A stretch of 17,690 nucleotides of DNA from Pseudobdellovibrionaceae bacterium (lineage in GTDB: Bacteria > Bdellovibrionota > Bdellovibrionia > Bdellovibrionales > Bdellovibrionaceae). The translations under genes were made by a program, and so were the position numbers. Location: the NCBI GenBank assembly GCA_044359815.1, contig JBIKLL010000060.1, positions 1-17,690 of the forward strand, written 5' to 3'. The notes beneath the pieces were generated by a model that searched no databases, was not told where the DNA came from, and worked only from the letters and a program-made list of their open reading frames with translations. Positions 1,957 through 17,589 of the stretch are shown here, piece after piece; the stretch's first letter is position 1, and every line of letters starts with the position of its first letter.

Positions 1957-2142
1957 ACGGTTTAGGATTCGGTCTTCCCACAAATGCGCATCACGCGCAT
2001 TTGTCCCAGAGCCGGGGCCGATCGCTAGAGTAGGGAGTACAGGATTGTCTCGGGCTCCTGCCCTCGCCCCCTTCGGGGTTTCACGCAAAAATAGCATAGT
2101 GCTATTTTTGCCGAACAAAGGTTCAAATCTGACTCTCTACCA
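1957..2142 (-). repeat. tRNA-Val 3'-end-derived repeat/hairpin array (att-like)
   Basis: 2030-2046 is a 17/17 copy of tRNA 2179-2195. 2120-2142 is a degenerate inverted copy of the tRNA 3' end. A short AGGATTC remnant lies at 1964-1970. Perfect hairpins at 1980-2004 (10 bp) and 2085-2111 (12 bp). Confidence 0.85.
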
Positions 2143-2145
2143 AAC

Positions 2146-2172
2146 TAAAAAACCACCTTTCGGTGGTTATTT
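2146..2172 (-). terminator. Intrinsic terminator after tRNA-Val
   Basis: Minus strand AACCACC-GAAA-GGTGGTT followed by a T run. Confidence 0.85.
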
Positions 2173-2176
2173 ACTT

Positions 2177-2252
2177 TGGTAGGGAGTACAGGATTCGAAC
2201 CTGCGACATCCACCTTGTAAGGGTGGCGCTCTACCAACTGAGCTAACTCCCT
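2177..2252 (-). tRNA. tRNA-Val (anticodon TAC), CCA encoded
   Basis: Reverse complement AGGGAGTTAGCTCAGTTGGTAGAGCGCCACCCTTACAAGGTGGATGTCGCAGGTTCGAATCCTGTACTCCCTACCA: 76 nt, canonical cloverleaf. Confidence 0.98.
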
Positions 2253-2349
2253 GTCGTCATTAAGAAAGGGTTTTTTAACGACAAAGACCCACCTAATCAA
2301 GTCCTTTTTGCTGATTTTAGGCAGCTGAGCACTGAACTATTGCCTAAAT

Positions 2350-3186
2350 CTAGATGTGGGCTTTTATAAACCCCGCCAGATCCCTGAAAACCTCATCACG
2401 GTTTAAATCGTTGTACAGTTCATGCCTTCTGCCAGGGTAAATTTTCATTTGAATTCCGGGATTGTTCGCAATCTCAACACACTGCTTGGTTTTGTCAGAA
2501 TCAACTACGGGATCAGATTCAGGAATCTGCACCAAGGTGGGGACCTTTAATTGTGACAATATGGCTGAAACATTTTTAAAGGATTTTTGAATCCCTAAAA
2601 AAACGCCAGCACTCATTTTTTGATGTCTCAAATTATCAAGCTCATATTCTTTTTTGACTAAATCATCCCTGGTCAGCTTGTCGTAATCTATACCGGTTCC
2701 CAACGTAAGCTTTGGCAAAAAGCTCTCGGCAATCACTGAAGCCAGTTCTTTCATAAACGGAACCTGCATGCTGATCCCAAACAGTGGCGAACTAAAAACC
2801 AGGGCTTCAAATTTTTGCATAGAACCCGCTACCACCGCAGTCTGAATCAATCCACCCATCGAGTGGGCAAATAAAATCAGTTTTTTAAATTTCACTATTT
2901 TTTGGTTCCCCAGTTGCATGATCAGAAACTCTAAATCTTTACTGTATTCGTAAAAATCCACAGCATAACCCCTTAGGCCATCGGATTTACCATGACCCCT
3001 CAGGTCCCAAGCAATCACAGAAGCACCCGTGGGGGCCAGGGCATCCACCACACGCATATAACAGCCCGAATGTTCACCGTGCCCGTGGGTCACTAAAACC
3101 AAGGTGTCAGATTTGTTATCCCAAAGCTGAAAATACAACTTTGAACCATCAAAACTATCAATGAAACCTTCGTGATGTGCTTGCAT
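2350..3186 (-). CDS. Alpha/beta hydrolase, lysophospholipase/monoglyceride lipase family (Hydrolase_4)
   Basis: HGHGEH, DLRGHGKS, nucleophile elbow AHSMGG, catalytic D (DPVV) and H (RHEL). Start uncertain (3186, 3195 or 3222). Confidence 0.9.
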   Translation of the reverse strand: MQAHHEGFIDSFDGSKLYFQLWDNKSDTLVLVTHGHGEHSGCYMRVVDALAPTGASVIAWDLRGHGKSDGLRGYAVDFYEYSKDLEFLIMQLGNQKIVKFKKLILFAHSMGGLIQTAVVAGSMQKFEALVFSSPLFGISMQVPFMKELASVIAESFLPKLTLGTGIDYDKLTRDDLVKKEYELDNLRHQKMSAGVFLGIQKSFKNVSAILSQLKVPTLVQIPESDPVVDSDKTKQCVEIANNPGIQMKIYPGRRHELYNDLNRDEVFRDLAGFIKAHI

Positions 3187-3243
3187 GGATATCATTCTCA
3201 ATCTGCCCTTGACTGATGCCAAGTAAAAAGATTTAAACGATGC

Positions 3244-3888
3244 ATGTTGATTTCTGATTTATTAAAAATTTCTGATAACCAGCGGGACCAAAAGTGGGAA
3301 GACCAGTTTTTAACGGCTTTCACCCAATCAAACATTCAATTGCTTACCGAGGAACCTCAGATGGGTCCCGACAGTTGGCCCTATATGATTGTTCAAACTT
3401 CACAAACTTCTGATGAATCTGCGCAAAAATTATTGCAGTGGGTGAGCACCAGGGGCATTGGGATTGTGATTAATCCGCATAAAACCTTTCCTGATTTTGT
3501 TTTGACCTATGGGATGATTTGGCATTTCAGGGAAACAGGTTATTTTATCCGCAGAAATCTGACTAAAAACATTAACAGCACCGAAAGCTCTGTGCAGTTG
3601 GATCTATCCCAGGCCAATTTTGCAGATCCTACGCCAGAAATTTTGCCTGATTACGCCAGAAAAATTTTAAAAGAATTTTTTATTCAGCAAAATATTTTGC
3701 GACCTAAAATTTCAACTGCTTTTTGGCATGACAATAATTTTGATTTAGTGATTTCATTAGAATCAATCGGCAATCCGCCTGAAGCAGATCACCCAGACAT
3801 TGCCGAAGCCCTGTCGTGGTTTTTGCCACCACATTATTCGATTTTGTTTTTAAGTGAAAAACAGCTTCCGTATTTTTGGGAAATCTAA
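3244..3888 (+). CDS. Hypothetical protein (214 aa)
   Basis: Long ORF, divergent from the hydrolase and abutting the convergent gene; no motif I can name. Confidence 0.8.
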   Translation: MLISDLLKISDNQRDQKWEDQFLTAFTQSNIQLLTEEPQMGPDSWPYMIVQTSQTSDESAQKLLQWVSTRGIGIVINPHKTFPDFVLTYGMIWHFRETGYFIRRNLTKNINSTESSVQLDLSQANFADPTPEILPDYARKILKEFFIQQNILRPKISTAFWHDNNFDLVISLESIGNPPEADHPDIAEALSWFLPPHYSILFLSEKQLPYFWEI

Positions 3889-3890
3889 AA

Positions 3891-4298
3891 CTACTGTTCT
3901 TCTATTTCGCCTGGCATGGGCAATAAATCCATCAAACATTCACGCCAATATTCTGGAGCGTCTTCGGTATAATCTATACCCAGCTCGTAACCGGCCTTAC
4001 CCAACAATTTGGTTCTGGCAATGCGCCCAGAAATTTCCAGATTTAATTGGGGCAGATTAATTAAAACCCGCATACCCTTTATTGAGTCTATAGTTAGATT
4101 TTTGCGCAGATTGGCCGGAACCAAGTCTTCGCGTTTTACGACTAACAACAGCCCTGTTGTTGATGCCTGCATGATTTCACCACCCTTAGAAAGCTTCATT
4201 AAGTTTTCTAGGGATGACATGCTGGCAACCTTTAATGGTTCGATGGACTTTCTGGGAGCTGATCTGCCACCGGGAGCTACTTTTTTTACTGCAACCAT
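3891..4298 (-). CDS. PilZ-domain-like protein
   Basis: RxxxR (RSAPR) and degenerate D/NxSxxG (QASTTG), C-terminal beta-rich GRIAR...LGIDY; SD-like AGGAAGG upstream. Confidence 0.7.
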   Translation of the reverse strand: MVAVKKVAPGGRSAPRKSIEPLKVASMSSLENLMKLSKGGEIMQASTTGLLLVVKREDLVPANLRKNLTIDSIKGMRVLINLPQLNLEISGRIARTKLLGKAGYELGIDYTEDAPEYWRECLMDLLPMPGEIEEQ

Positions 4299-4336
4299 AT
4301 TTGCCTTCCTGTTCTTTTCTTAAGCTTACCTTAAAC

Positions 4337-4363
4337 TGATCGGCAAAACTGGACCAAAGTTAA
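4337..4363 (-). promoter_or_regulatory. Putative sigma-28 (FliA) promoter of the PilZ-like gene
   Basis: Minus strand TTAACTTT-N11-GCCGATCA versus consensus TAAAGTTT-N11-GCCGATAA. Confidence 0.65.
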
Positions 4364-4592
4364 GGAGTCCAATCAAAATATCCTGAAAACATTGAATCAC
4401 CCTGGAACAGATTCCAATAACGATTCTGCCCCCCAATGATTTGTGGATCTTTTAAACATCACAATCTCAATATGAGACTGTAATATACTGATATTTAGCA
4501 CAGTCCCTATAGCCCTCTTTCAGGTCTGAATGCGTATTATAGGGTTTAGTTCACGCTTGCTAGTGCAAATGGGAACCACTAATATCGTTCCC

Positions 4593-5534
4593 ATGATCAA
4601 CCATGAAGTCACACATAATGGAATCACCTGGGTCGACGTCATTGATCCAGCAAACGTTGATTTTTCAGACCTAGTTAAACGTTTTGGACTGCACAGTAGT
4701 TCGATCGAAGAATGTCTGGAGCCCGAGCACCTGCCAAAATACGAACATATGGAACGCTATAAATTTATGATTTTGCGGGCCATCGATATGGATGCTGATC
4801 GCAGGTCAGATTCTGTGCAAAGACTTACCAATAAATTAGCTATTTTTTATTCGGATGACTTTATTGTCACCTTTCACAGAATCAAACAGCCTTATGTGGA
4901 AGCAGTGATAAAAAAATTCAATGATGGATCTCAGATTTGCGATTTTGGTGCTAAATCAGTGGTTGTCGAATTAATCAATCAAGTCGCTTCAACATATGAC
5001 AAAGCCGTCGAAGACACCTACAGAAAGTTCGAAGGGTTTGAAGCTGAAGTTTTTAATTCAAATGCTGCCATCAAATTACAGCAGATTTATTTGTTAAAAC
5101 GACGGGCTTCCATTATGCACAGAATGCTCAAGATGATGGATGGACCTATTTCCGAAATGATCGTTGATTGCCCTGATAACGTAAAGCCCCAGTTTCAGAC
5201 AGTCCGTGAACATCTGAATAAGCTGACCTTTCAATTGGAAGAAGTCCGCGAAAGCCTGATTTCGTTACTGAATCTGCACGTATCCTTTGCATCCCATCGA
5301 ACCAACGAGGTCATGAGGGTATTGACAATATTTTCTGTGTTCTTGATGCCGCTGAATTTCATCGCCGGGGTTTATGGGATGAATTTTGAGTATATGCCAG
5401 AGCTAAAATCAGAATTTGGTTACCCGCTGGCTTTGGGTTTTATGGTTCTGGTAGCTGCGGTGATTTATCTGTGGTTTCGCAAAAAGGGTTGGCTGCGAAC
5501 AGACAACCTGAGCAAAAAAATCAGCAACAGATAA
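4593..5534 (+). CDS. corA: CorA-family Mg2+/Co2+ transporter
   Basis: WVDV near the N-terminus, TNEVMRVLT, GVYGMNF (GMN motif), MPEL, two C-terminal TM helices, WFRKKGW. Start 4593 preferred over 4530/4569. Confidence 0.93.
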   Translation: MINHEVTHNGITWVDVIDPANVDFSDLVKRFGLHSSSIEECLEPEHLPKYEHMERYKFMILRAIDMDADRRSDSVQRLTNKLAIFYSDDFIVTFHRIKQPYVEAVIKKFNDGSQICDFGAKSVVVELINQVASTYDKAVEDTYRKFEGFEAEVFNSNAAIKLQQIYLLKRRASIMHRMLKMMDGPISEMIVDCPDNVKPQFQTVREHLNKLTFQLEEVRESLISLLNLHVSFASHRTNEVMRVLTIFSVFLMPLNFIAGVYGMNFEYMPELKSEFGYPLALGFMVLVAAVIYLWFRKKGWLRTDNLSKKISNR

Positions 5535-6039
5535 AAAAGCAGATTTGATGAGTTTTACCGCCGAACACTATGCCTTTGCTGTTTTTTAAACCGTACACCT
5601 GAGGGTTTTCCAGGCTAAAGGTTTGGATGTTATCAGCGACTTTTTGAAAGGGCCCCAACAAAATCTGACTCAGCGTCTGAGGCTGTTTAAAGCCACGCAA
5701 TCCCTTAAAGGAAGCTTCCAGGGCCACCCATGTGGCCTTGCAATTGTCCTCGGTGGCCTTTGGATAGATCCTGCGAACCACATTAAAGGTGATGTTATCA
5801 GTTTGCTCGATGTCCAATCCCACGTTGGTTTTGGTTTCAGGATTGATGGCAAAAAATCCACCCAAATTAGGGCAATGAGATTTTGAATATTTAAAATCAA
5901 CATAAGGCTTTAATGAATCCAGCAACAAATATTTTGAACCGGTAACGTCTGCACCCCAACTGGGATCAAATTTATAAACTATATCTTTGGTATCAAAATC
6001 TTTAAAAACTTCTGCAATGTTAAAATCTAAACTGCTCAC
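5521..6039 (-). CDS. 4'-phosphopantetheinyl transferase superfamily protein (short/divergent)
   Basis: SKSH, VGLDIE and WVALEASFK match the SxSH / GxDxE / WxxKEAxxK motifs; GTG start overlaps the nadA stop. Confidence 0.7.
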   Translation of the reverse strand: MSSLDFNIAEVFKDFDTKDIVYKFDPSWGADVTGSKYLLLDSLKPYVDFKYSKSHCPNLGGFFAINPETKTNVGLDIEQTDNITFNVVRRIYPKATEDNCKATWVALEASFKGLRGFKQPQTLSQILLGPFQKVADNIQTFSLENPQVYGLKNSKGIVFGGKTHQICFFICC

Positions 6040-6998
6040 ATAAACCTATCTGAAAACTGTACGGGTTTTCCGTTAACAATATCAACCATTCGCTGCAGAG
6101 GCAGCTTGGCCCGCTCTTGTACCTGAGCGTTTATCGAAATGGGGTTAAGCTTTTCAATCATAGTTTTTTTAATTTTTTCCAAAGTATTAAGCTTCATATA
6201 GGGACAATTGTTACAGGCGCAAGTTTCATCATCAACGGGGGCTTGTATCAACACAGCTTCTGGTCGAGATTTTTGCATCTGATGCAGGATCCCTGTTTCA
6301 GTAGCCACAATAAATTTTTTAGCTGGATTATTTTTAACCTCGTCTAATAATTTAGAAGTCGAACCAATTACTGCGGCATAGGCCAAAACTGGTTCATCAC
6401 ATTCAGGATGGGCGATCACTATTGCGTCTGGATTTTCACTAATAAGCTGATGCAATCGTTTTGCTGAAAATAAAACGTGGACCTGACAAGCGCCCTGCCA
6501 AATTTCCATTTTACGCCCTGTTATTTTTTGCAAAAACTTACCTAAGTTTTTATCTGGTCCAAACAAAATCGGCCGATCTGCAGGCAGCGAGCGAATGATT
6601 TTTTCGGCGTTGCTGGAGGTCACAATCACATCACTGATGGATTTTACTGCCACGCTGGAATTAACATAGGTCACTGCGATCCCATCAGGATAAAGCTTTC
6701 GCCAAGCCAAATATTTTTCATAGGGTGAATCATTAACCAATGAACAGCCAGCATTCAAATCAGGGACAAAGACATTTTTTTGCGGTGACAACAGCTTCAC
6801 GCTTTCGGCCATAAACACCACTCCGCACATCAGGATATTTTGCTGTTTTAAGTTTTTTGCCTGAATGGCTAATTGGTAGCTGTCGCCGACAAAATCAGCC
6901 AGGTCTTGAATTTCACCGTCTTCGTAATAGTGGGCCAAAATGGCAAAGTCGTGCTTTTGTTTTAGATTTTTGATTTCTGTAACTAGATCATAGCCCAT
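6036..6998 (-). CDS. nadA: Quinolinate synthase
   Basis: ILAHYY, FVGDS, CGVVFMAE, AGCSL, YVNS, GACQVH, AHPEC, ATETG and CPYMK motifs, with three Fe-S cysteines. Confidence 0.97.
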   Translation of the reverse strand: MGYDLVTEIKNLKQKHDFAILAHYYEDGEIQDLADFVGDSYQLAIQAKNLKQQNILMCGVVFMAESVKLLSPQKNVFVPDLNAGCSLVNDSPYEKYLAWRKLYPDGIAVTYVNSSVAVKSISDVIVTSSNAEKIIRSLPADRPILFGPDKNLGKFLQKITGRKMEIWQGACQVHVLFSAKRLHQLISENPDAIVIAHPECDEPVLAYAAVIGSTSKLLDEVKNNPAKKFIVATETGILHQMQKSRPEAVLIQAPVDDETCACNNCPYMKLNTLEKIKKTMIEKLNPISINAQVQERAKLPLQRMVDIVNGKPVQFSDRFM

Positions 6999-7025
6999 AG
7001 GACAAGGGTTTATACCACTTTATAA

Positions 7026-7064
7026 AGTGCTGCCACCTTTAAGTACATTGATGATGGATTTTGA
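7026..7064. repeat. 39-bp perfect direct repeat of the mglA 3' end (displaced copy)
   Basis: AGTGCTGCCACCTTTAAGTACATTGATGATGGATTTTGA is identical to 8327-8365; 43/45 when extended through the stop codon (7020-7064 vs 8321-8365). Confidence 0.97.
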
Positions 7065-7107
7065 TGAGCCTAGATCTTGGAAGCTGGGGTCCAGGCCAGC
7101 AATTTAG

Positions 7108-7175
7108 AAATGACTAAAAATACCAACGAGTCATTTTAGTATTGACTAAAATTACCTAAAGGTCAAAATAGTCAT
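7108..7175 (+). promoter_or_regulatory. Promoter/operator array of the ATPase gene (probably leaderless)
   Basis: Two 32-bp imperfect tandem units (7111-7142, 7143-7174) with inverted TGACT/AGTCA half-sites; TTGACT (7142-7147) and CAAAAT (7164-7169) end 6 nt before the ATG; no SD. Confidence 0.55.
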
Positions 7176-8318
7176 ATGGAAAGATATCTACATTCCCGTG
7201 TTTTAAAAGACCTCGGTTCTAAAATGGTCTTCATTAGCGGGCCCAGGCAGTGTGGCAAGACAACCTTTGCCCAAGAACTATTGAAGGCTTCAAAATCTGG
7301 CAGGTATCTCAATTGGGACTCAAAAGACGACAGAAAAACAATTTTGGATTCTAGCTGGGTTGATCAAGATAATCTAATCGTTCTGGATGAGATCCACAAA
7401 TATCAAAAGTGGAAGAATCTTATTAAGGGAATCTATGACACACAAAAAAAGATTCATCAGTTTTTGATCACCGGAAGTGCGCTTTTAGATGTTTACAGAA
7501 AAGGTCAGGATTCTTTGTTCGGCAGGTATCACCATTGGCGCCTGCATCCCTTTTGTTTGGCAGAAAATCCTTTGCAGGATGATCCCAGTCAGGTTTTGGA
7601 AAGACTTATTGAAAGGGGCGGCTTTCCTGAACCTTTTTTGGCAGAGTCTGCAGTCGATGCCAAAAGATGGGCAAAGTCGCATATGGATTTATTGATTAAA
7701 GAAGACCTTCGAGACTTAAGCTTTATCAAGGATCTGACAGCTATCGAGCAACTGTATGAGGGGCTTCGGGCTAGGGTAGGGTCCATAATTTCGAATGCCA
7801 ATATTGCTAGGGATATCGAGGTCGCCCCAAAGACCGTGAAACAATGGATCGCAATCTTGGAAAGCCTTTACATTATATTTTCCATAAAACCATATTCCGG
7901 AAAAATGATTCGTGCTTTGACAAAGCCTTCCAAAATTTATGTTTTCAATAATCCAGAAGTTGATGGAGATGAAGGTGCAAAGTTTGAAAATCTGGTAGCT
8001 ACGCATTTGCTGAAGAGAGTTCATTTTCTAGAAGATTCAATGGGTGAAAAATTTGAACTCAGTTATTTGCGCGACAAAGAAGGCCGAGAAGTTGATTTTG
8101 TGATTCTAAAATCAAAAAAACCAATTTGCCTGATAGAGGCAAAATACAACTCAGATCAGCCATCTGGTCATTTAAACTATTTTGGCGATAAGCTGAAAAT
8201 TGCAAAGCGAATACAGTTAGTACAAAAATTAAAAAAATCTTCCAAATTAAAAAACATTGAAATAATTCCGGCGGCACAATTTTTAAGTAAGCCACTGGAT
8301 CAAAACATCTTCGAATAA
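7176..8318 (+). CDS. AAA+ ATPase (AAA_14) with DUF4143 region: winged HTH and C-terminal PD-(D/E)XK-like motif
   Basis: Walker A GPRQCGKT, Walker B LIVLDE, ITGS, GGFPE, HTH-like NIARDIEVAPKTVKQWIAILE, FENLV, EVDFV..IEAK. Confidence 0.92.
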   Translation: MERYLHSRVLKDLGSKMVFISGPRQCGKTTFAQELLKASKSGRYLNWDSKDDRKTILDSSWVDQDNLIVLDEIHKYQKWKNLIKGIYDTQKKIHQFLITGSALLDVYRKGQDSLFGRYHHWRLHPFCLAENPLQDDPSQVLERLIERGGFPEPFLAESAVDAKRWAKSHMDLLIKEDLRDLSFIKDLTAIEQLYEGLRARVGSIISNANIARDIEVAPKTVKQWIAILESLYIIFSIKPYSGKMIRALTKPSKIYVFNNPEVDGDEGAKFENLVATHLLKRVHFLEDSMGEKFELSYLRDKEGREVDFVILKSKKPICLIEAKYNSDQPSGHLNYFGDKLKIAKRIQLVQKLKKSSKLKNIEIIPAAQFLSKPLDQNIFE

Positions 8319-8320
8319 GA

Positions 8321-8911
8321 TTAAAGAGTGCTGCCACCTTTAAGTACATTGATGATGGATTTTGAAACTGTTTTTAATGAATCCATTACTCCGCGGCCCT
8401 CTGATGCCGTGGCCTCAAAGTCAGGTGCGTTGTATTTGTTAAGCTGTGCTCTTAGCTCAGAAAGCTTTAAAGCATTTGGCAAATCCCGTTTGTTGTATTG
8501 AAGCACAACAGGGATTTCTTTGATGTCATAACCTTGAGTTTCCAGATTGCGTTCCAGGTTTCTGAGCGATAACAGATTTTCCTCCATCCGCTCGGCCTGT
8601 GAATCTGCAACAAACACCACACCATCAAGGCCTTTTAAAATTAATTTTCGGCTGGCATCGTAAACCACTTGGCCAGGCACGGTGTACAGATGAAACCGCG
8701 TCTTAAAGCCCCTGATGCTACCCAGATCAATCGGCAAAAAATCAAAAAACAAAGTGCGTTCAATGTCGGTGTTCAGTGTGATTAAATCGCTTTTTTCGCC
8801 ATTGGTTTGTTGAAACACCCAACGGATGTTTGTGGTTTTACCACTCAGTGAAGGACCGTAGTAAACGATCTTGCAGTGGATTTCTTTGGCGTTGTAGTTA
8901 ATAAATGACAT
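8321..8911 (-). CDS. mglA: Ras-like small GTPase MglA
   Basis: MSFINY..KIVYYGPSLSGKTTN, RTLFFDF, TVPGQV, NKRD; start overlaps the recR stop (TAATG). Confidence 0.97.
   Translation of the reverse strand: MSFINYNAKEIHCKIVYYGPSLSGKTTNIRWVFQQTNGEKSDLITLNTDIERTLFFDFLPIDLGSIRGFKTRFHLYTVPGQVVYDASRKLILKGLDGVVFVADSQAERMEENLLSLRNLERNLETQGYDIKEIPVVLQYNKRDLPNALKLSELRAQLNKYNAPDFEATASEGRGVMDSLKTVSKSIINVLKGGSTL
8327..8365. repeat. 39-bp direct repeat, copy within mglA
   Basis: Identical to 7026-7064. Confidence 0.97.
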
Positions 8912-9513
8912 TACAGCTCAATCCTGTTTTCAAGTGCACGGCTCATTGTTCTGTCATCAATATAATCGATGTCGCTACCAATAGGAACACCTTGTGCGAT
9001 TCTGCTAAGTTTAATTGCACGGGTTGCAAATAACTTCATCAAATACAAAACCGTGGTGTCGCCCTCAAGGTCAGAATCCAAGGCTAAAATTAATTCTTTT
9101 ATGCGCCCCTCTGATCGATCTATCCGTTTGATCAGCTGATCAATGGTTAAATCATCTGGCGATACCCCATCTAATGGCGAAATTGATCCATGCAACACAT
9201 GATACCTGCCACGAAAGGCGCCCGAAGCTTCAATGCGCATAATATCTGAGGGTTCTTCAACGATACACAAAACATCGTCAGAACGATTGTTGTCCTGGCA
9301 GTAATAACACACGACCTGGTCGGTAAAATTAAAACATTCAGGGCATTGTCTGATGGATTCATGCAGACGATCCAGGGTCGCAGACAATTGCTTAGAATTT
9401 TCGGAAGGGCTTTTTAGCAGATAATACGCAAGCCTTTGCGCGGTCTTTGGGCCGATGCCAGGCATTTTGCCTAATTCAAAAACCAATTTATCTAACAAAG
9501 GGATTCTCAGCAT
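8911..9513 (-). CDS. recR: Recombination mediator RecR
   Basis: HhH MPGIGPKTAQRLA, C4 zinc finger CPEC..CYYC, Toprim VEE / YHVLHG / EGDTT. Confidence 0.97.
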   Translation of the reverse strand: MLRIPLLDKLVFELGKMPGIGPKTAQRLAYYLLKSPSENSKQLSATLDRLHESIRQCPECFNFTDQVVCYYCQDNNRSDDVLCIVEEPSDIMRIEASGAFRGRYHVLHGSISPLDGVSPDDLTIDQLIKRIDRSEGRIKELILALDSDLEGDTTVLYLMKLFATRAIKLSRIAQGVPIGSDIDYIDDRTMSRALENRIEL

Positions 9514-9869: not shown

Positions 9870-11488
9870 TTATGATCTCCTTTGTTGGTGACTGATTTGA
9901 TTTTGACTTTGAACGCCTGCGAAGCCGATCGCACCAATGGGTGTTTGGATAAATCCTCGATGACTTCTTGGGTTTTTGCGTTTTCTTTTTCGGTAGCCAA
10001 AGATTTTGCCGTAGTGGCGACTTTGACAGAAGACTGCTTGCTTTCAGTGATTGTAAACTCACAACCAGCGCCGTATTCGATGTGCACATGTTTACCCAGA
10101 TCAGACAACAAAGCCTTGTCCTGAAACTGTGGTGACAAAAACGAAACCTTGGCAGGGATGCCCAGTTCCAGCTTGTTGTCTTTGTGATTAATAAAAATCA
10201 GATTTTCAATCTTTGCACCCAGGATGGGATCAGCAGCTTTTACCTGCTGTACAAACTGAAACCATTTTTCCTGCGGGTTGATACCAATAGGATTGCTTTT
10301 GTGAGTCGCCATCGCAGGAGCTGCCGGACGTGCTACAGAATCCTGTGATTGTGTCACCGTCCCCTGGGGTCTGGCTGACAGTAATTCTGAAATTTGCACA
10401 ACATTTGGAGCTTGCGCGCATCTAAGCAGCAAAATTTCCATCACCAATATCGGATCCACTGATCGTGTTAAATCACTGATGCCCTTTAGGATCATATCAA
10501 AAATCAAATGCAGATCTTCGTACTGCAGGGGTTCACCCAAATCAGTCAAATACCTGATTTCTGAATCTGGCAAATCCAAGCTGGTGGGGTTTTTTGAAAC
10601 TTTTAAAAAAATCGCATTACGGATTGATTCGATCAGCTCTTTACCAAAAATAATGGGATCAAATCCAGATTCACGCAGTTTTTCAATGCACGCCATTGTG
10701 TCTGATAAATTTCGCGCACACAAAGCCGTTAGGGTTTCCAGAACCAAGGCCCTATCAGTCAGGCCCAAAATATCAACCGCCAATTGAGGAGTGATTTTTT
10801 GACCGGCAAAGGTGATTACCTGATCCAGCAAGCTTTGGCTGTCACGCATGGATCCATCACCCTGTCTGGCAATGGTCCAAAGGCTTTCGGTATCAATGTC
10901 CACTGAGTCTTTGGCGCAAATATTTTTTAAATGCTCAACGATTTGTTTTGTGGAAATTCTGCGAAAGTCAAAACGCTGAACCCTGGATAATATGGTCACA
11001 GGGATTTTATTGACCTCGGTCGTAGCCAGCACAAACAACACGTGAGCCGGAGGTTCTTCGAGAGTTTTTAATAGGGCATTGAAGGCCCCAGTCGACAACA
11101 TGTGGACTTCGTCTAAAATATAAATTTTGTATTTACCCTGAGAGGGTAAAAACGATACCCCTTCGCGCAGTTCGCGTATGGCATCAACACCGTTGTTCGA
11201 GGCTCCGTCGATTTCGATCACATCGATGTTTCGCCCCTGAGCAATTTCATCACAGGTTGTGCACTGATTGCAGGGCGTGGCTTCGGTAACGTTAGGACAT
11301 TTTAAAATCTTGGCCAGGATTCGAGCGCTGGAAGTTTTGCCAGTGCCTCTGGGGCCGGTGAACAACAACGCGTGATGGAGTCTGTCGTTTTTGATCGAAT
11401 TCAGAATTGTCCTAGAAATATGGGGCTGCCCAACCAGTTGTTCAAATGTTTGAGGGCGCCATTTTCTGGCGATCACTTCGTATGACAA
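9866..11488 (-). CDS. dnaX: DNA polymerase III subunit gamma/tau
   Basis: ARKWRPQTF, GPRGTGKT, zinc module, EIDGASNNGVD, DEVHML, NALLKTLEEPP, GSMRD; TTG start with GGAGG SD. Confidence 0.98.
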   Translation of the reverse strand: MSYEVIARKWRPQTFEQLVGQPHISRTILNSIKNDRLHHALLFTGPRGTGKTSSARILAKILKCPNVTEATPCNQCTTCDEIAQGRNIDVIEIDGASNNGVDAIRELREGVSFLPSQGKYKIYILDEVHMLSTGAFNALLKTLEEPPAHVLFVLATTEVNKIPVTILSRVQRFDFRRISTKQIVEHLKNICAKDSVDIDTESLWTIARQGDGSMRDSQSLLDQVITFAGQKITPQLAVDILGLTDRALVLETLTALCARNLSDTMACIEKLRESGFDPIIFGKELIESIRNAIFLKVSKNPTSLDLPDSEIRYLTDLGEPLQYEDLHLIFDMILKGISDLTRSVDPILVMEILLLRCAQAPNVVQISELLSARPQGTVTQSQDSVARPAAPAMATHKSNPIGINPQEKWFQFVQQVKAADPILGAKIENLIFINHKDNKLELGIPAKVSFLSPQFQDKALLSDLGKHVHIEYGAGCEFTITESKQSSVKVATTAKSLATEKENAKTQEVIEDLSKHPLVRSASQAFKVKIKSVTNKGDHK

Positions 11489-11565
11489 AAATCCTCCGGC
11501 TTACGAAAAAACAATTTACAACATTTGTGAAATTGAATTTTTTAATTAACCCCTAAAAACAAAAA

Positions 11566-11663
11566 GCGGCCGGGCGATCCATATCACAAATCAGTTTGAG
11601 TACCGTTGCTCCCTTCCGGGCCTAGCGGGATTGGTCAAACCAGATTTTGTATGGGACCCGACC
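11566..11663 (-). ncRNA. ffs: Signal recognition particle RNA (small bacterial 4.5S type)
   Basis: Minus strand forms a long hairpin GGTCGGG...CCCGGCC with domain IV GCTAGGCCCGGAAGGGAGCAAC, followed by a T run; typical position upstream of dnaX. Ends approximate. Confidence 0.93.
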
Positions 11664-11886
11664 AACATTAGGGGATACAGCAGAAATGGCGGATTTCCGA
11701 TCAATGACGCGAATCTTAGTGAATTTATTGCCTAACCGATAGGCTTAAATCAATAGGAAGCCACCAAGATTTAAGGGGGCTTTCGAAATCCAAGGGAATT
11801 GGTTATATATTTTGCCATCCAGGGCCGGCGCTCTGGTAAAAATCAAAATTCAAACTGCATTACGAGGGCACAAAAGGAGTCACAAA

Positions 11887-12270
11887 ATGCTATTAACGAT
11901 TTCAGCTTTAATGGTGGGGTTTTTGTCGGCTAACGATGCAACACAGATGCTTGAATGCAGTAATAAAAAAGCGTTAGGGACATCATATGTGAGAGTTTAT
12001 AATTCGGATGGACACTGCAACGGTGATAAGCGCAAATCAAAATTGGCTTTGGTTTATGTAAACGATGACATTGGCAAACCTGTTGTGTTTTGTGCCCAGG
12101 GAGATTTGTCAGCATTTAAAGAAGGCCAAGAAATGCAATTTGTCGTTCAATCTGCTTTTGCATGGCATTTTATTGATGACCAAACAATTACCTACAACCA
12201 AACCAAAAAGACAATTTGGTTACAGGAACAAACTTTTTATTGTTCAAACAAAACTGTCAGAGGCGAATAA
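11887..12270 (+). CDS. Small hypothetical exported protein (127 aa, 4 Cys)
   Basis: AGGAG SD 7 nt before ATG 11887; hydrophobic N-terminus MLLTISALMVGFLSA. Confidence 0.7.
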   Translation: MLLTISALMVGFLSANDATQMLECSNKKALGTSYVRVYNSDGHCNGDKRKSKLALVYVNDDIGKPVVFCAQGDLSAFKEGQEMQFVVQSAFAWHFIDDQTITYNQTKKTIWLQEQTFYCSNKTVRGE

Positions 12271-12324
12271 CAAGTCCAAATCAATTTTGATGGGCTTAGA
12301 AACCTGCTGTTGATACAGATCAGG

Positions 12325-13050
12325 CTATTTACCCTTTTGCGAAATATAGGTTTTTCGAAGAGCGTTTCTGATGTTGGTTAAAATATCAGGAGTGATTCCC
12401 AAAAAATAAAAAGAATTTAAAAACTGCCCCTCAAAGGATTCGTGGGGCTCAGATCCATAACACCGTCCGATCACAGAACCTGTTTGGCTAAAATCAGCGC
12501 CAAAAGCCTTTGAATACAAAATAGCTAATTCATCAGTTTGATATTGCTGTGTAGACCGCAGCTGGCAGTCAAATTCAGATAAACCTTCGATCACGCCAGG
12601 CTTTGCTACGTCAGCGTTTTGTGAAAGCTGTAACGAATAAACCTGTCGGGTGTCGTTAGTGCGACGACCTATGGTGTACATTGTGATTTTTTCGATCAAC
12701 AGGGCTTTATCAGGTGGCAACAACAAATAATCTTTGAAGCCAGAATTCAGAATTTTTAAAACCTTTAAATGATCTGTTTCAGTTCCGACTAAAATTTTGG
12801 GTGCTGTTCGGTTGGGAAATTTTTTATAAAAGCTGTCGACAAATTCTTGAGGTTGCTGCTGACCCATCACGACCTGTTCATACATCATGACATCAAAATT
12901 TACTGCCGTTAGAGCTTCAACGTATTTACGCTCATCCATCACGTGAGTGATGGAGTTGACCTCGCCTGCGTCTTGCTGGCGTCTTTTGAAAAAATCGTCT
13001 AATAGATCTTTAACTCGTTTGTCTGGACCATAGTACAATACTGAAGCCAA
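12325..13050 (-). CDS. Hypothetical signalling protein: degenerate receiver-like N-terminus and PilZ-like C-terminus
   Basis: FDVMMYE / PKILVG / LNSGFKDYLLLP resemble a REC fold lacking the phosphoacceptor Asp and conserved Lys; IEGLSEFDC..GRC..FYF resembles a PilZ barrel; TTG start with GGGGGA SD. Confidence 0.6.
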   Translation of the reverse strand: MASVLYYGPDKRVKDLLDDFFKRRQQDAGEVNSITHVMDERKYVEALTAVNFDVMMYEQVVMGQQQPQEFVDSFYKKFPNRTAPKILVGTETDHLKVLKILNSGFKDYLLLPPDKALLIEKITMYTIGRRTNDTRQVYSLQLSQNADVAKPGVIEGLSEFDCQLRSTQQYQTDELAILYSKAFGADFSQTGSVIGRCYGSEPHESFEGQFLNSFYFLGITPDILTNIRNALRKTYISQKGK

Positions 13051-13120
13051 TGTCTATCCCCCATGATGTCGATCTAAGTTAATTATTCATTATAGAATTA
13101 GGTATGTGAAGAACTAATTT

Positions 13121-14104
13121 TTAAAAAAGCCTTAAGATTTTCTCTAGCTGTTCGGTTTCCTCGGCCCAATAGTTATAAGAACCGAATTCAGGAAATATTT
13201 TTGGAAAACTGGGGTCCAGCCATCGATTGCCGATCCAGGCTGCGTACGAAATAATTCGCAGTCCCCGCAGTATCGGAATCTTTTGCCATTCACCTAGTGG
13301 AAAGTCTCGGAGCTCTTCGTAGCCTGAAAGCAAAATTTCTTTTTCGGATTCATCAGAAAAATCTGATAAAAGCATCCACACATCCTGTGATGCAGGTCCC
13401 ATCATGCAATCATCAAAATCTATAAAATAAAATAAATTTTCGGTTCCTGTTTGCGGCCGTTTGAGCAAATTTCCACGATGGCAATCGCCATGGATCCGAA
13501 AAAATCGACTGCTGTCAAAATTGTCGTAATACAAATCCTCGATTTCTTGAGCGGCATTTAAATATCTGGATTTCATTTCGGGCACTAAAAACCGATCAAT
13601 TGTGTGCAGCATTTCATTGATTTGGTAAGGCTCAAAACCTAAACGCGGACGGTGTTTGAATTTATATTTAGCGCCCACGTTGTGAATCTGAGCCAAGGTT
13701 CTGCCGGCCTTTTGCAGATCGTCACCCAAAAACTCATCAGGCATTTTGCCATAAAATTTCGGGAAAAATGCCACCAGATGGCCTTCAAATTCCAAAATAG
13801 TGGAATTTTGTTTGAAACGGATCGGCGCAACAACTGGTATCTTTTCGGCTTCAAGCTCGATCAAAAAACTGTGCTCTTCTTGGATACAGGGCAGTGACCA
13901 CCGACCGGGACGGTAAAATTTAACGATGATTTTTTGTGGCGTTTCAGGATTATCCGAGGCTTCCAGTTTGACCTCAAACACACGATTTTCATAGGAATTC
14001 AGCTGCTGAAATTCGCCTGTGGGCCAAAACCCAGCGGCTTCGACGGCAGACAGTATTTTGTCGGGATTCAGATCTGTAAACGATTGTATTGAGTTTTGTT
14101 TCAC
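13121..14104 (-). CDS. srkA: Stress-response Ser/Thr kinase SrkA (RdoA/YihE)
   Basis: LNSYENRV, KFYRPGRWS, EEHSF, IHGDCHRGN, IDFDD, QDVWML, RWLDPSFP. Confidence 0.95.
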   Translation of the reverse strand: MKQNSIQSFTDLNPDKILSAVEAAGFWPTGEFQQLNSYENRVFEVKLEASDNPETPQKIIVKFYRPGRWSLPCIQEEHSFLIELEAEKIPVVAPIRFKQNSTILEFEGHLVAFFPKFYGKMPDEFLGDDLQKAGRTLAQIHNVGAKYKFKHRPRLGFEPYQINEMLHTIDRFLVPEMKSRYLNAAQEIEDLYYDNFDSSRFFRIHGDCHRGNLLKRPQTGTENLFYFIDFDDCMMGPASQDVWMLLSDFSDESEKEILLSGYEELRDFPLGEWQKIPILRGLRIISYAAWIGNRWLDPSFPKIFPEFGSYNYWAEETEQLEKILRLF

Positions 14105-14203
14105 CCAGTCACATTACCATCTGCAGTAACATTTTGTCCTGGTATATTCATTGCTACTTAAGGAATTGGGGACAGTAGGACACTTTTTTTAAGGGTTTTT
14201 AGG

Positions 14204-15241
14204 TTGTGTCCCAACAGTTACCTGATAACAATTGTCCAAGCGGGGGGCGGTATTTTAAGCAATCAATTAGAAAACAAAAAATCTGATATCGAAATACTGG
14301 AAGCACCAAATCTGTCGTTTTATTTAGATTACCGAAAATATTTGGATGATTTTTATAAGTACAAACGCGAACTGACTAAAAAAAGTCTGCGACCCTATAC
14401 CTATCAAGTGTTTTCAGCAGGTGCGGATATTAAATCGCCTAATTATTTAAAAATGGTGATTGATGGCAAACGAAATTTGTCTATGGACATGGTTTTGAAA
14501 TTTGCAAAGGCCCTGGGATTAAACAAAGAATCTACAGATGAATTCAAATTGCTGGTGCAGTTTACCCAGGAAAACGATCCAGCGCTCAGAAATATTTTTT
14601 TAAAAAAACTGAATGAACACAGGATTTCAGCAAAATTAAAATCTGGTGAAATTGATGCCAAGACTTGGGAAAAACTGCCCAATTGGATCAGTTGGATTTT
14701 GTTTGCGATGATTGATCAAACAGGTGTGGAATTTAAGCCAGACAAATTGGTTAAACTATTACGTGGAACTGTTAACGAAGAAGAAGTCAGACAGGCTTTG
14801 CAGGCAATCATTGATTCAGGTGAAGTCGAAGTTTCACCTGAAGGCATGGTGGTCAGAAAAAACAATCTGATCGAAACTCCCGAGGATGTTTCAGTTCAGC
14901 TGGTCAGAAAGCTGCAATCTGAGTTGATGTACCTGGGACTAGAATCATTGTTTAAGGATTCAGCCAGCGATCGTGAATTTGGTTCGGCGACTTTGGCCCT
15001 GACCAAAGAAGAGTTTGAGGAGATAAAATTTCAGCTACGAAAGATCAGAAAACAAATCCAAAAAGACAATTCTGTTAAAAGAGCAGGCACAAAAGGGGAC
15101 AAAGTTTACCAATTGAATTTGCAATTGTTCCCGGTGACAGACAGAGTCAATGCGCAACAAGCAGGCATAGCTGCCCAGCAGCAAGAAACTAGACTTTCTG
15201 TTAGTTCTTTGTCAGAAAACCAAAAGGAAACCACTTTGTAA
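14204..15241 (+). CDS. TIGR02147-family protein (N-terminal HTH, DUF4423)
   Basis: YLDYRKYL..FSAGADIKSPNYLKMVIDGKRNLS..AKALGL, C-terminal REFGSATLAL and VYQLNLQLFPVT. True start uncertain. Confidence 0.88.
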   Translation: MCPNSYLITIVQAGGGILSNQLENKKSDIEILEAPNLSFYLDYRKYLDDFYKYKRELTKKSLRPYTYQVFSAGADIKSPNYLKMVIDGKRNLSMDMVLKFAKALGLNKESTDEFKLLVQFTQENDPALRNIFLKKLNEHRISAKLKSGEIDAKTWEKLPNWISWILFAMIDQTGVEFKPDKLVKLLRGTVNEEEVRQALQAIIDSGEVEVSPEGMVVRKNNLIETPEDVSVQLVRKLQSELMYLGLESLFKDSASDREFGSATLALTKEEFEEIKFQLRKIRKQIQKDNSVKRAGTKGDKVYQLNLQLFPVTDRVNAQQAGIAAQQQETRLSVSSLSENQKETTL

Positions 15242-15280
15242 CCACAAAAATGTGGATAAACCCGTGGATGCCGTTGATAA
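15238..15280. promoter_or_regulatory. DnaA-box cluster (1 perfect, 3 degenerate)
   Basis: TGTGGATAA 15251-15259 (perfect TTATCCACA on minus); GTAACCACA 15238-15246; CGTGGATGC 15263-15271; CGTTGATAA 15272-15280. Confidence 0.5.
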
Positions 15281-15468
15281 CTCACTAGAAAAACAAGCTT
15301 TAGGTGACGTTTTGCCACTGCTGAAAATTTATTTTTAAACAAATTATTATTTATAGGTCTAGGAATAACGAATGGGGTTTGTATTCAATTTTTGAATGAT
15401 AAATCTGTGATGAAAATAAATTTTTTTAGTGGTTTATGTTGTTGTTGACTCGATCGAAATGAATTTTA

Positions 15469-15813
15469 GGGGGTGACCTGGTTTCGACGTGGGAACAGAA
15501 GCTTGAGGAGCATTCCGGGGCGCATGGGGACCTCGTTAAAAACGTGCATCTTGTAATTGACAACAATTACGCACTTGCAGCCTAACCGCTAGCACGAAAT
15601 TATTTGTTGTGGTCGCGGACTTATAATTTCGTCATTTAGTGACCTCGATCTTGCGTGCTTTCTGCAGGCGTAAGATTTAAAAAATTCTGTGGGAAGGGTA
15701 GTTTTGATTTCGTCTGTAGAAGCTAAGCTATCAATTTAAATTGCAGACTAAGAATGTAGCGCCTCAACGTGGATGTCTTACGGACGGGGGTTCGATTCCC
15801 CCCACCTCCACCA
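15469..15813 (+). ncRNA. ssrA: tmRNA, tag peptide (A)DNNYALAA
   Basis: 5' GGGGGTG..GGTTTCGAC pairs with 3' CACCTCC-ACCA with a G3:U pair; T-arm GGGGGTTCGATTCCCCC; tag frame GAC AAC AAT TAC GCA CTT GCA GCC TAA at 15559-15585. Confidence 0.97.
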
Positions 15814-15815
15814 AT

Positions 15816-15842
15816 TAAAATGCCACCGAAAGGTGGCTTTTT
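15816..15842 (+). terminator. Intrinsic terminator after tmRNA
   Basis: GCCACC-GAAA-GGTGGC followed by TTTTT. Confidence 0.88.
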
Positions 15843-15845
15843 AAT

Positions 15846-15984
15846 TGGTGGATGGATGAAGGGAATCGAACTATTCTCGAGCCGGGGTTCGACTCGAAGG
15901 CCACGATGGCCGGAGAGCGCGTAGCCCTGAGCTTCGCTGAGGGTGAGTGCCGTGACGGCACGAGCATTCCCCCCACCTCAACCA
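15846..15984 (+). repeat. tmRNA 3'-end-derived repeat/hairpin element (att-like)
   Basis: Inverted degenerate copy at 15846-15871; GGGGTTCG at 15884-15891; GC-rich hairpins at 15892-15965; direct copy 15966-15984 (18/19 to 15795-15813). Confidence 0.88.
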
Positions 15985-16219
15985 TTTTCTCCGTACCAGT
16001 TATCAAGGATTTAACGGGGTTTCTTTTTGTTTCACTGAAATTCATTTATTATCATATATTTCAAAAACTTAATTGTATTTTTGCTTGAATTAAGTTCCTT
16101 GGATTTCCCTTACTTTAATCAAGTAACTTAGGGTCTTCTAGACTTGTTTTCTCTTTTCATTCTGCCGACAATGAAGCTTCTACAACGCAACAACCAACTA
16201 CTATGTTGAAGGGGTCTCC

Positions 16220-17371
16220 ATGAAAAAAATGATCGTTGTTATATCTCTGGTTATCACGAGCGCCTGCTCTAAAAGCAGTGACACGACTTCTGCTGCGGCC
16301 ACATTGGATACATCCATTACTGGTGTCATCTCCACCGCAACCGAAAAAATCACAGAGGGAATTCCAGGAGGAGATGTTTTGGCGTCTTCGGTTTCGACCT
16401 TAGGTGATATCGGTGCTGGCTATGGGAGCACAGATATTCAAATATTCGGATCTGGCTACTTCAACACTCCACAAACCTTCGTGCAATACTTGCTGAACAA
16501 AGCAGAAGATCTGGATCCAGGGGATGGAATGGGTTTGATCAATCGTTTTAAACAAAAGATTGTCAGCGGAATGTGTCCAATTATTGGACTGCATCCCGAT
16601 GCAAATTCAGATGGGATTCCCGACATTGGATCGGGTACCTTTGTTCTTCCTAACTTTTCGGACTCAACAGTTGCGGCTTCAATTGTTGCGAAATGTCCAG
16701 GAGCCAACGCAGCAAGCCTGAACGGCGCCTCAGGAGTAACAATCGGCTATGCGGTCACCGACGTCAGCGCTCTGGCGGGTTCAGAGTATTCCATTAAATC
16801 CGTGATCGATTTTGGTAATAATGGATCCACTGATAATATTCTTTATTACAAAGCGGATGGCAGTGTAATTCGCTTTGCATTTGTCGAGGTTGATACTTCT
16901 ATTATTGAGAGTGCTGCCTTATTTGAATTCGATGGAACTACATTAAGGTTTGATTTCCACGGCGGAGGGCAGGATGGCCACTATCGCATGCTGTATGACG
17001 GTTCAACTCGTGATATTTCACTTTATGGAATGGTGAAGAAAGATGCATCAAACAAGGTTTATATGTCGATGGTCGGAAATCGAAAAGAATCCCTAGCTGC
17101 TGTTACGTTGTCTGCCTTGAAAGCAAACGTAGCGGTTGTTTCAAATGGTCAAGCTTGCGTTACCGTCACTGGCGACACCTTTCCCTGGGACTCGAATTTC
17201 TCTTCGGGTGCCTGCGGAACTATTGTTGGATCTGATTTCGCCACCGCGCCGGCTGTTGCTGCACTTTCTGACGGATTTGATGGGTCATTGAATGTCAGTG
17301 TGTTTGATCACACGGATAAGATTCTTTTTTCGACACCAGCAACTGTGCTGACCAGCGCGATTATTCAGTAA
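16220..17371 (+). CDS. Hypothetical lipoprotein (383 aa)
   Basis: MKK + hydrophobic stretch + lipobox-like TSAC (Cys16), Ser/Thr-rich tether, beta-rich body; SD AGGGG. Confidence 0.85.
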   Translation: MKKMIVVISLVITSACSKSSDTTSAAATLDTSITGVISTATEKITEGIPGGDVLASSVSTLGDIGAGYGSTDIQIFGSGYFNTPQTFVQYLLNKAEDLDPGDGMGLINRFKQKIVSGMCPIIGLHPDANSDGIPDIGSGTFVLPNFSDSTVAASIVAKCPGANAASLNGASGVTIGYAVTDVSALAGSEYSIKSVIDFGNNGSTDNILYYKADGSVIRFAFVEVDTSIIESAALFEFDGTTLRFDFHGGGQDGHYRMLYDGSTRDISLYGMVKKDASNKVYMSMVGNRKESLAAVTLSALKANVAVVSNGQACVTVTGDTFPWDSNFSSGACGTIVGSDFATAPAVAALSDGFDGSLNVSVFDHTDKILFSTPATVLTSAIIQ

Positions 17372-17475
17372 TACTTTTCTATCGCAGTTTTCACAGGACT
17401 TTAAAAACAAATCCATGTATCAACAAGGCAAACTCGACATTTTTGAAAGCGGTGTTGCCATAGCGAAAGCCGTTT

Positions 17476-17589
17476 GGAGATCCGTCGCTGAGATTGAGGC
17501 GGCATTCCCCCCACCGAACGTTGCCGGCTCTGGAAGCGAAGTGAGCGTGAAGCGAACTTGAGCGAGAAGACCTATTCCCTCCACCGAGC
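17476..17589 (+). repeat. Two further tmRNA T-loop/acceptor fragments with an intervening module
   Basis: GCATTCCCCCCACC 17502-17515 (14/14 to 15964-15977); ATTCCCTCCACC 17574-17585 (11/12); TCGCTGAG 17485-17492 matches 15934-15941. Confidence 0.8.

Follow-up and report, generated by a model that had tools for sequence, protein, structure and literature searches.

Downstream of the tRNA-Val and transfer-messenger RNA (tmRNA) genes on a contig of a Pseudobdellovibrionaceae bacterium lie two short arrays of structured repeats with the same plan. The contig (JBIKLL010000060.1, our contig C59) was analysed over its whole length of 17,690 bp and is called the window here; it belongs to an assembly (G000) of 2.95 Mb in 125 contigs, with 41% GC and an estimated completeness of 91%. 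We hold with moderate confidence that such loci, in Bdellovibrio-like bacteria, are tandem copies of gene-less, non-autonomous units of about 130-250 bp, which integrate site-specifically at the T-loop of tRNA and tmRNA genes (together, tDNAs). The units have a common anatomy and a conserved fold, have their insertion boundaries in the T-loop, restore the gene end together with a terminator, accrete in tandem, carry small cargo in some cases, and have spread among tDNAs and among bacterial lineages.

Two loci of the window share one architecture

Read in gene sense, both loci lead from the gene end through a terminator hairpin and an inverted copy of that end, which has diverged, to the 5' half of a T-loop. 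A folded module (module A) and a direct copy of the gene end come next. Farther out, a short form of a second module (module B) precedes another, shorter piece of the gene end. The features are listed below; R1 and R2 are covariance models of modules B and A, respectively, and z scores refer to single-sequence DNA folding.

tRNA-Val locus:
2177-2252, minus strand: tRNA-Val(tac) gene, called by ARAGORN and Rfam; segment b, which is repeated, comprises the final 19 nt of the gene (2177-2195), from position 58 in the T-loop to CCA
2151-2168, minus strand: terminator hairpin (segment S) of the proximal unit, terminator-like and correctly oriented, with a 14-nt core identical to the one at tmRNA
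2119-2142, minus strand: inverted, diverged copy (b') of the tRNA-Val 3' end (score 32; 0/200 shuffles as high)
2047-2116, minus strand: module A with hairpins H1-H3, set between the 5' and 3' halves of the T-loop (R2 match 2038-2121; z -4.8)
2030-2046, minus strand: direct copy 1 of the tRNA-Val 3' end, from T-loop position 58, 17/17 identical
1970-2025, minus strand: short module B, the 3' part of the four-hairpin module (R1 match 1963-2130; z -3.6)
1964-1969, minus strand: second direct copy, a 6-nt remnant, the oldest and most decayed

tmRNA locus:
15469-15813, plus strand: tmRNA gene, called by ARAGORN and Rfam; its last 19 nt are the repeated segment
15822-15837, plus strand: terminator hairpin of the proximal unit, terminator-like and correctly oriented, with the same core as at tRNA-Val
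15846-15871, plus strand: inverted, diverged copy of the tmRNA 3' end (score 32; 0/200 shuffles as high)
15882-15965, plus strand: variant of module A on the H1-H2-H3 plan, with compensating changes in H1 (R2 match 15882-15974; z -1.6 by folding alone)
15966-15984, plus strand: direct copy 1 of the tmRNA 3' end, from T-loop position 58
16220-17371, plus strand: cargo open reading frame (ORF), 383 aa long, that starts like a lipoprotein, matches no Pfam or NCBIfam family and separates direct copies 1 and 2
17504-17515, plus strand: direct copy 2 of the tmRNA 3' end, 12 nt
17524-17572, plus strand: short module B (R1 match 17451-17580, E 1.1e-5; z +1.0 by folding alone)
17574-17585, plus strand: direct copy 3 of the tmRNA 3' end, 12 nt with one mismatch

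An earlier, sequence-only reading of this DNA had described the two-locus architecture. Its coordinates, the 14-nt terminator core and the five fragment spacings (149 and 77 bp at tRNA-Val; 171, 1538 and 70 bp at tmRNA) were all recomputed and agree, as does its statement that the direct copies start at the same point of the T-loop, which is position 58 at both loci. The terminator core (2153-2166, minus strand, identical to 15823-15836, plus strand) does not occur a third time in the 2.95-Mb assembly, and the two units can be aligned across the terminator region as well. When the 400 nt downstream of either gene were shuffled, none of 200 shuffles attained the observed direct or inverted score.

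The five-base motif ahead of module A is the 5' half of the T-loop. At other loci, the bases preceding module A match the T-stem of the local tRNA, even where this tRNA has another T-loop. A displaced gene-end copy is therefore interrupted by module A within its T-loop. H1 and H2 are common to the A modules at tRNA-Val and tmRNA, with compensatory changes, and BLAST finds relatives of these modules behind other tRNAs. The division into locus-specific, host-derived parts and shared modules, also made in the sequence-only reading, is supported.

Modules A and B are conserved folds

Modules A and B are real structured families. R1 was seeded with six co-linear copies of module B, four from G000 and two from other families, none of them from the window. 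RNAalifold predicts 44 pairs for these copies, of which 26 show compensatory changes. In a whole-genome search, R1 found the copies at both window loci (1963-2130, minus strand, E 4.4e-9; 17451-17580, plus strand, E 1.1e-5). When 39 R1 matches were aligned to the model, an alignment whose pair counts favour the model structure since it was fitted to it, 91.7% of the cells were paired, compared with 65.6% in shuffles (0/500 as high) and 30-41% with slid partners. Double-sided changes occur in 40 of the 44 pairs of the aligned matches. The inner helices contain many more G.T than A.C oppositions (62 vs 21), which points to the tRNA-sense strand as the one that folds.

For module A, the R2 seed includes both window copies. 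Covariation supports H1 and H2, also in the tmRNA variant, and H3 was recognised by eye only. From 13 module-A copies, MAFFT and RNAalifold recovered H1 alone; from a smaller set, they recovered H2 too. Folding of single sequences backs the two modules at tRNA-Val only, with the z scores listed above. Rfam, searched at E values up to 1 with the window and 18 further loci, matched only tRNA, tmRNA, signal recognition particle (SRP) RNA and, by chance, microRNA-like hairpins, so that no Rfam family was found to which the modules belong.

Units follow about half of the genome's tDNAs

The DNA downstream of all 33 tRNA genes and the tmRNA gene of G000 was surveyed; 32 of these genes are followed by at least 150 nt of contig. 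Each gene's own last 27 nt were compared with the 400 nt downstream, and copies were accepted at p <= 0.01 against 200 shuffles. By this test, a direct copy is present at 17/32 tDNAs, an inverted copy at 10/32 and both at 8/32, with two of the 17 direct matches being merely neighbouring tRNA genes in a cluster on contig C96. By eye, at least one unit is found at about 18 of the 34 tDNAs. Two of these loci were completed across contig ends that probably adjoin in the genome, to judge from their identical overlapping ends. R1 matches 10 places in G000, including both window loci, and R2 matches 13 places. The description of the architecture as a feature of two unrelated tDNAs is thus correct for both genes and understates its extent.

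Segment S is either a plain terminator or a palindrome of 90-130 nt. The arms of the palindromes are perfectly complementary and differ from locus to locus, and the GC-rich centre is common to them. Repeats proximal to the gene are better kept, and distal ones are more decayed.

Three further observations were made in G000. At four loci (C55:30100-30176, C84:38439-38515, C29:~290-340 and the unit on C107), another GC-rich hairpin module of about 50 nt is nested exactly in the loop of H1, or of its counterpart in module B, which suggests insertion into hairpin loops. Several contigs are split by an insertion sequence (IS) of the ISL3 family, of 1.3 kb and with a 398-aa transposase (C79:13121-14456, C75:1-100, C29:1-99, C106:1-127 and C81:14071-14197). 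Every end of it that was seen lies within a palindrome or unit directly behind a tRNA gene (tRNA-Leu, tRNA-Met and a unit derived from tRNA-Leu), in one case with an 8-bp duplication. Finally, about 17 kb of stress-type genes (C99:54387-71650) lie between tRNA-Gln and a module-A unit with a tRNA-Gln-like inverted copy. They encode Usp, Hsp20, OsmC and CBS proteins, an erythromycin-esterase fusion and a ribosome hibernation factor. None of them is a recombinase gene.

Boundaries and spread within the order

The modules were sought in 151 genomes of the order, including G000, from 13 families (G-numbers designate the genomes compared). Module B is present in 23/151 genomes and 7/13 families, and module A in 52/151 genomes and 8/13 families. 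Outside the order, R2 matched 7 genomes in a phylum sample of 151. Among the R1 matches that were fetched, 21/27 lie 51-150 nt behind a tRNA or tmRNA gene on the same strand, whose end fits the outer stem, and 3 of the remaining 6 are at contig edges. Among the fetched R2 matches, 12/19 lie 59-189 nt behind a tRNA gene, 4 follow a tRNA-Ser-like end and a terminator, 1 follows a conjugative element and 2 are away from tRNAs. Altogether, the units occur at no fewer than 15 tRNA species and at tmRNA, and in G000 and most other genomes the module copies stand behind tDNAs.

The boundaries of a unit can be read directly at tRNA-Gln in one genus, from complete genomes of about 3.8 Mb. The site is empty in G099, where the conserved flank directly follows the gene, and occupied in G075. 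The insert in G075 is about 230 bp long, consists of S, b' and module B, and is bounded by a perfect 20-nt direct repeat from the T-loop to CCA; beyond the second repeat, the flank is homologous to that of the empty site in G099. Internally deleted derivatives are present in G115 and G139. The long-palindrome form of S occurs in G008 and G139 of the same genus, with arms that are perfectly complementary within each genome and differ between both.

The copies also point to spread between tDNAs and between lineages. The copies behind tRNA-Leu, tRNA-Phe and tRNA-His of G037 agree at 90-94% in their inner modules, and their outer stems match the tRNA concerned. Between tandem copies, identity is 99-100% in G023 and in contig C69 of G000. 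Some nearest neighbours are found in other families, for example G041 and G075 at 80%. The T-loop boundaries, tandem accretion and occasional small cargo that had been noted in the window thus recur at many tDNAs and in many genomes.

The surroundings of module A differ in G139, where intergenic clusters of five or six GC-rich hairpins that include the module-A core are flanked by 30-40-nt inverted repeats of local sequence (on C1, e.g. 1443569-1444653 and 1670593-1671677). In viral contigs, a strict module-B pattern gave 9 matches, all due to chance, in coding regions of high-GC phages and with neither hairpin nor tRNA; a BLAST search of phage and plasmid collections with a module-A unit yielded no match.

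Cargo genes

Cargo lies between successive direct copies. At tRNA-Met it is a toxin-antitoxin pair of the Gp49/HI1420 type, at tRNA-Glu an HTH_37 protein with a partner of no known family, at tRNA-Arg BrnT/BrnA with a DUF4440 protein, and at tmRNA the lipoprotein-like, family-less ORF of 383 aa. At all three tRNAs, the cargo is read as a toxin-antitoxin pair. Behind tRNA-Pro in G363, a cargo-less unit stands beside a unit with a cargo of two ORFs. The two have about 190 identical nt in common. The inverse of their common right arm forms the left arm of the cargo-less unit.

Candidate mobilising enzymes

The sequence-only reading had taken the shared modules to indicate a common trans-acting machinery. 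No recombinase gene was found in the window, and no serine recombinase, reverse transcriptase or TnpB (sought by its zinc ribbon) was matched in the G000 assembly. The best scores for an integron integrase in G000 were 123.5 and 80.2 bits, compared with a cut-off of 265. The tyrosine recombinases of G000 are two in number, both best matched by XerC/XerD models.

Two families of single-tyrosine HUH (HUH-Y1) proteins were considered. The first, of 211 aa, has eight paralogues in G000 that are 87-93% identical and have about 75 nt of upstream sequence in common; they are not flanked by modules.

HUH-Y1 genes of 211 aa in G000:
C23:186-821
C48:48162-48797
C8:23373-24140
further copies on C56, C47, C49, C100 and C125

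Long tandem repeats with units of 6-8 nt, similar to microsatellites, adjoin several of these genes. Many genomes of the order have multiple copies of the family, with up to 21 matches. Co-occurrence was tallied by hand from genome tables, and the genomes are related and thus not independent. The 211-aa family is present in 84/151 genomes, namely in 31/51 with module A and 52/99 without, and in 13/22 with module B. G139, G135, G157 and G087 have 10-17 module copies and no match to it. The second family resembles repetitive extragenic palindromic (REP)-associated tyrosine transposases (RAYT). It is present in 102/151 genomes, in 41/51 with module A and 60/99 without, and some module-bearing genomes lack it. 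G037, with five module-B copies, has neither Y1 family. The single RAYT-like gene of G000 (C8:9501-10160) is bracketed by an inverted repeat of about 24 nt that is unrelated to modules A and B.

Phage-type integrases occur in 96/150 other genomes of the order and are absent from G000. When the ORFs of 46 module loci were scanned down to a length of 170 aa (72/77 scanned, the five others being in L050, L068 and L074), only one had a phage-type integrase domain. It lies in G045 (C3:235581-262540), in an integrative conjugative element (ICE) of 26.8 kb in tRNA-Met, which carries VirB4/TraG-like, coupling-protein and Fic genes and, at its right end, the gene for this 417-aa tyrosine integrase. The element sits between tRNA-Met and an older mini-unit, and the repeat at its right junction has the same starting point in the T-loop. 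The restored tRNA-Met end is followed, at a distance of 18 nt, by an inverted T-arm copy. The adjacency of integrase and module in G045 is best read as tandem accretion. With respect to the proposed common machinery, HUH-Y1, RAYT-like and phage-type integrase genes do not clearly track the modules, and no mobilising enzyme was identified.

Other features of the window

The window further contains the following genes.

11565-11663, minus strand: SRP RNA gene (58.8 bits)
14204-15241, plus strand: gene for a DUF4423 protein, immediately 5' of tmRNA

The nearest named relatives of G000, judged by its DnaX-like protein, are metagenome-assembled genomes of Bdellovibrionales (61% and 47% identity). 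The window is matched by 24 metagenome runs from lake water or wastewater, none of them an RNA run. Contigs from four metagenome runs, which are short and shallow, revealed no structural variants at either locus; two of the metagenome contigs span parts of units, which are unchanged.

Discussion

The observations suggest the following scheme. A unit consists of four parts. Segment b replaces the gene end from the T-loop through CCA, S is either a terminator or a long palindrome, b' repeats the gene end in inverted orientation, and the conserved folded module is either A with three hairpins or B with four. Insertion of a unit would displace the old 3' end downstream and so create direct repeats with starts at positions 55-59 of the T-loop. 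New units would enter beside the gene, so that older ones come to lie farther out and are more decayed. One to three cargo genes may ride between the repeats. Strand exchange would be carried out by a T-loop-crossing recombinase that is supplied in trans, and b'-module-b, once folded on the tRNA-sense single strand, may serve as the attachment site, as attC does in integrons and the hairpin does in CTX phage. We favour integration by a recombinase acting in trans because the repeat is of the integrase type and because a real integrase, that of the ICE in G045, uses the same point. The scheme also gives the inverted copy a role, since it would supply the second strand of the site.

Several points weigh against this scheme. 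No recombinase is linked to the units: G000 has only the two Xer-like enzymes, the complete and module-rich genomes G139, G115 and G087 lack a match to phage-type integrases, and none of the 11 other loci with integrases homologous to that of G045 has module A or B, or a tRNA within 1.5 kb. Neither circles nor variant junctions were seen. The fit of b and b' to each new tRNA is not accounted for. The repeat often extends beyond CCA by 7 to more than 40 nt, and local duplication therefore fits as well as integration. In G139, 11/12 fetched module-A copies are more than 500 nt from any tRNA, which implies that module A is not strictly a tDNA element; the description of the units as T-loop-targeted, which agrees with the position of most R1 and R2 matches, has to be qualified to this extent. 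Finally, strand-biased mutation could produce or add to the G.T excess, and the fitted alignment of module B has the bias mentioned above.

The fit to each tRNA could be achieved in a more elaborate form of the scheme, which we consider distinctly unlikely. Here, b'-module-b would be a self-templating single-strand attachment site, and its target-copy stem would be refitted to each tRNA by hairpin-templated correction. T-loops would then be a genome-wide, integron-like platform for cassettes, run by a host Xer-type or an unrecognised enzyme.

The most serious alternative, though still an unlikely one, is that the units are hairpin elements similar to REP sequences and bacterial interspersed mosaic elements (BIMEs), or derived from IS200/IS605. 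In this case, an HUH-Y1 enzyme would move single-stranded DNA (ssDNA) into hairpin loops, and the T-loop of a tDNA would be one favoured loop among others. The exact location of module A within the T-loop after position 57/58, the lack of terminal inverted repeats together with subterminal hairpins, and the bias of the fold to one strand speak for such elements. So do the nesting of a further module in the H1 loop at four loci and the dispersal of module A away from tRNAs in G139, and T-loop targeting may indeed be a special case of a hairpin-associated element. Suitable genes are also at hand, with eight HUH-Y1 genes of 211 aa and one RAYT-like gene in G000. However, the 211-aa family is about as frequent in genomes with module A as in those without, G139, G135, G157 and G087 have module copies and none of its genes, and G037 manages with neither Y1 family. 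The Y1 genes are not flanked by modules, and TnpB was not found. The excess of RAYT-like genes among module-A genomes is weak evidence, because the related genomes are not independent. Transposition of this kind leaves the restored gene end, the inverted copy and the 20-nt direct repeat at the polymorphic tRNA-Gln site unaccounted for.

It is quite improbable, in our view, that the units are enzyme-free by-products of replication. Fold-back priming and template switching at strong hairpins near highly transcribed tRNA genes would create them, and unequal recombination would amplify them. Such a process would readily produce long arms that are perfectly complementary and yet differ between loci and genomes, a palindrome that extends into the tRNA end, and the cargo-less unit of G363, which resembles the right half of the cargo unit folded back. 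It is also in line with the variable length of the direct repeat beyond CCA, the identity of tandem copies and the failure to find an enzyme. It offers no account of the same modules at many tDNAs and in many families, nor of the foreign S at the polymorphic tRNA-Gln site and the constant junction at the T-loop. Nevertheless, transposition by an HUH-type enzyme and fold-back duplication, the main rivals, each account for features that the preferred scheme leaves aside, namely the dispersed copies, the nested insertions, the perfect arms specific to each locus and the variable length of the repeat.

The units could also be ordinary scars, that is, decayed islands or conjugative elements such as cis-mobilizable elements (CIMEs) as defined in PMC5704250, with the modules as leftovers of attachment-site arms. 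Direct repeats of tRNA ends, tandem accretion, cargo remnants and the conjugative element in tandem with a unit in G045 are what one would then see. Nevertheless, this is very improbable: independent decay would not converge on one plan of 130-250 bp at about 18 tDNAs, and it is not expected to keep compensatory changes in two modules across 7-8 families. Cargo-less copies that are 90-94% identical at three tDNAs of G037, and the absence of modules from the 11 homologous-integrase loci, also disagree with it. Least of all, it is scarcely credible that the modules, instead of being mobile DNA, act in tRNA 3' trailers as functional RNAs or as cis-acting RNA structures (for processing, stability or as decoys): strong covariation, the constant tRNA-sense orientation, G.T pairs on the sense strand and an acceptor-like helix that inverted and direct copies could make would suit this role, but a terminator usually precedes the module, in the window and at many other loci, and makes read-through RNA unlikely, Rfam has no match, and units are present or absent, tandemly repeated or reduced to deletion derivatives.

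The units are related in kind to tDNA-integrating and hairpin-repeat elements that are already known. tRNA genes are classic landing sites of islands. K. Williams reportedly described, in 2002-2003, islands, prophages and conjugative elements that integrate into tRNA and tmRNA genes, tyrosine integrases that cross over in the T-loop, and classes of sublocation. To our knowledge, the known elements of tRNA sites carry their own integrase, and each is tied to one tRNA. The units resemble such elements in several respects: a direct repeat extends from the T-loop as far as the 3' end, incoming DNA restores this end, tandem copies accrete with the newest beside the gene, tmRNA is used as well as tRNAs, and empty and occupied sites with exact boundaries exist (G099 and G075). 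In contrast, they are 130-250 bp long and contain no genes, not even for an integrase. At least 15 tRNA species are used by a single module family, and every unit combines an inverted copy that matches its target with a multi-hairpin fold that is conserved.

A second class for comparison comprises REP, BIME and REPIN (REP doublet) sequences with RAYT, and palindrome-associated elements derived from IS200/IS605. GC-rich clusters of hairpins, alternating orientation of units, dispersed copies in one genus, insertions into loops and the presence of Y1 genes are common to both. Unlike these elements, the units are tied to the T-loops of tDNAs with restoration of the gene end, have locus-specific arms and show no clean co-occurrence with either Y1 family; a repeat of another kind flanks the RAYT-like gene in G000. 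Behind the tyrT operon of E. coli lie tandem 178-bp repeats with copies of the tRNA end. They share the tRNA 3'-end copies and the tandem amplification with the units described here, but are confined to one locus of one species and have no inverted copy, no common folded module and no spread to other tDNAs.

CIMEs are decay products of ICEs or integrative mobilizable elements (IMEs) that retain attL and attR and have lost the genes for integration and transfer (PMC5704250). They resemble the units in lacking an integrase, in being bounded by attachment-type repeats and in standing in tandem with a functional element, as in G045. The units differ from this description in the structured core that is common to families and tDNAs, in seeming to multiply as a mini-unit, and in having no identifiable source ICE or IME, with modules at 0/11 integrase loci. 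Integron cassettes have a folded single-stranded attC, and the CTX phage has a hairpin that is used by XerCD (compare PMC7439510 and PMC3442271). The likeness to integron cassettes lies in arrays of small, promoter-less cargo units that end in an imperfect palindrome with a variable structured centre, of which the structure is kept and the sequence is not. Strand bias, toxin-antitoxin cargo and a genome with only Xer-like tyrosine recombinases are in common with integrons and CTX phage. Unlike in integrons, no integron integrase and no attI platform were found; a tRNA gene serves as the platform, the stem of the palindrome copies the target itself, and the use of ssDNA is putative. Full-text searching, judged on titles and abstracts, found no literature that describes such elements, and the family of gene-less T-loop hairpin units is apparently undescribed.

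One genome thus has a tiny, gene-less, folded unit at about half of its tDNAs, and the unit is found again across a phylum of predators, with flanks adapted to each tRNA and, in some cases, toxin-antitoxin cargo. The units account for contig breaks and for 'tRNA fragments' in these assemblies. A folded site that is matched to its target could also interest the designers of recombination tools. If the units move as proposed, they would represent a new way of building cassette arrays at essential genes without harm. They would then also indicate an unrecognised recombination activity on T-loop-like DNA.

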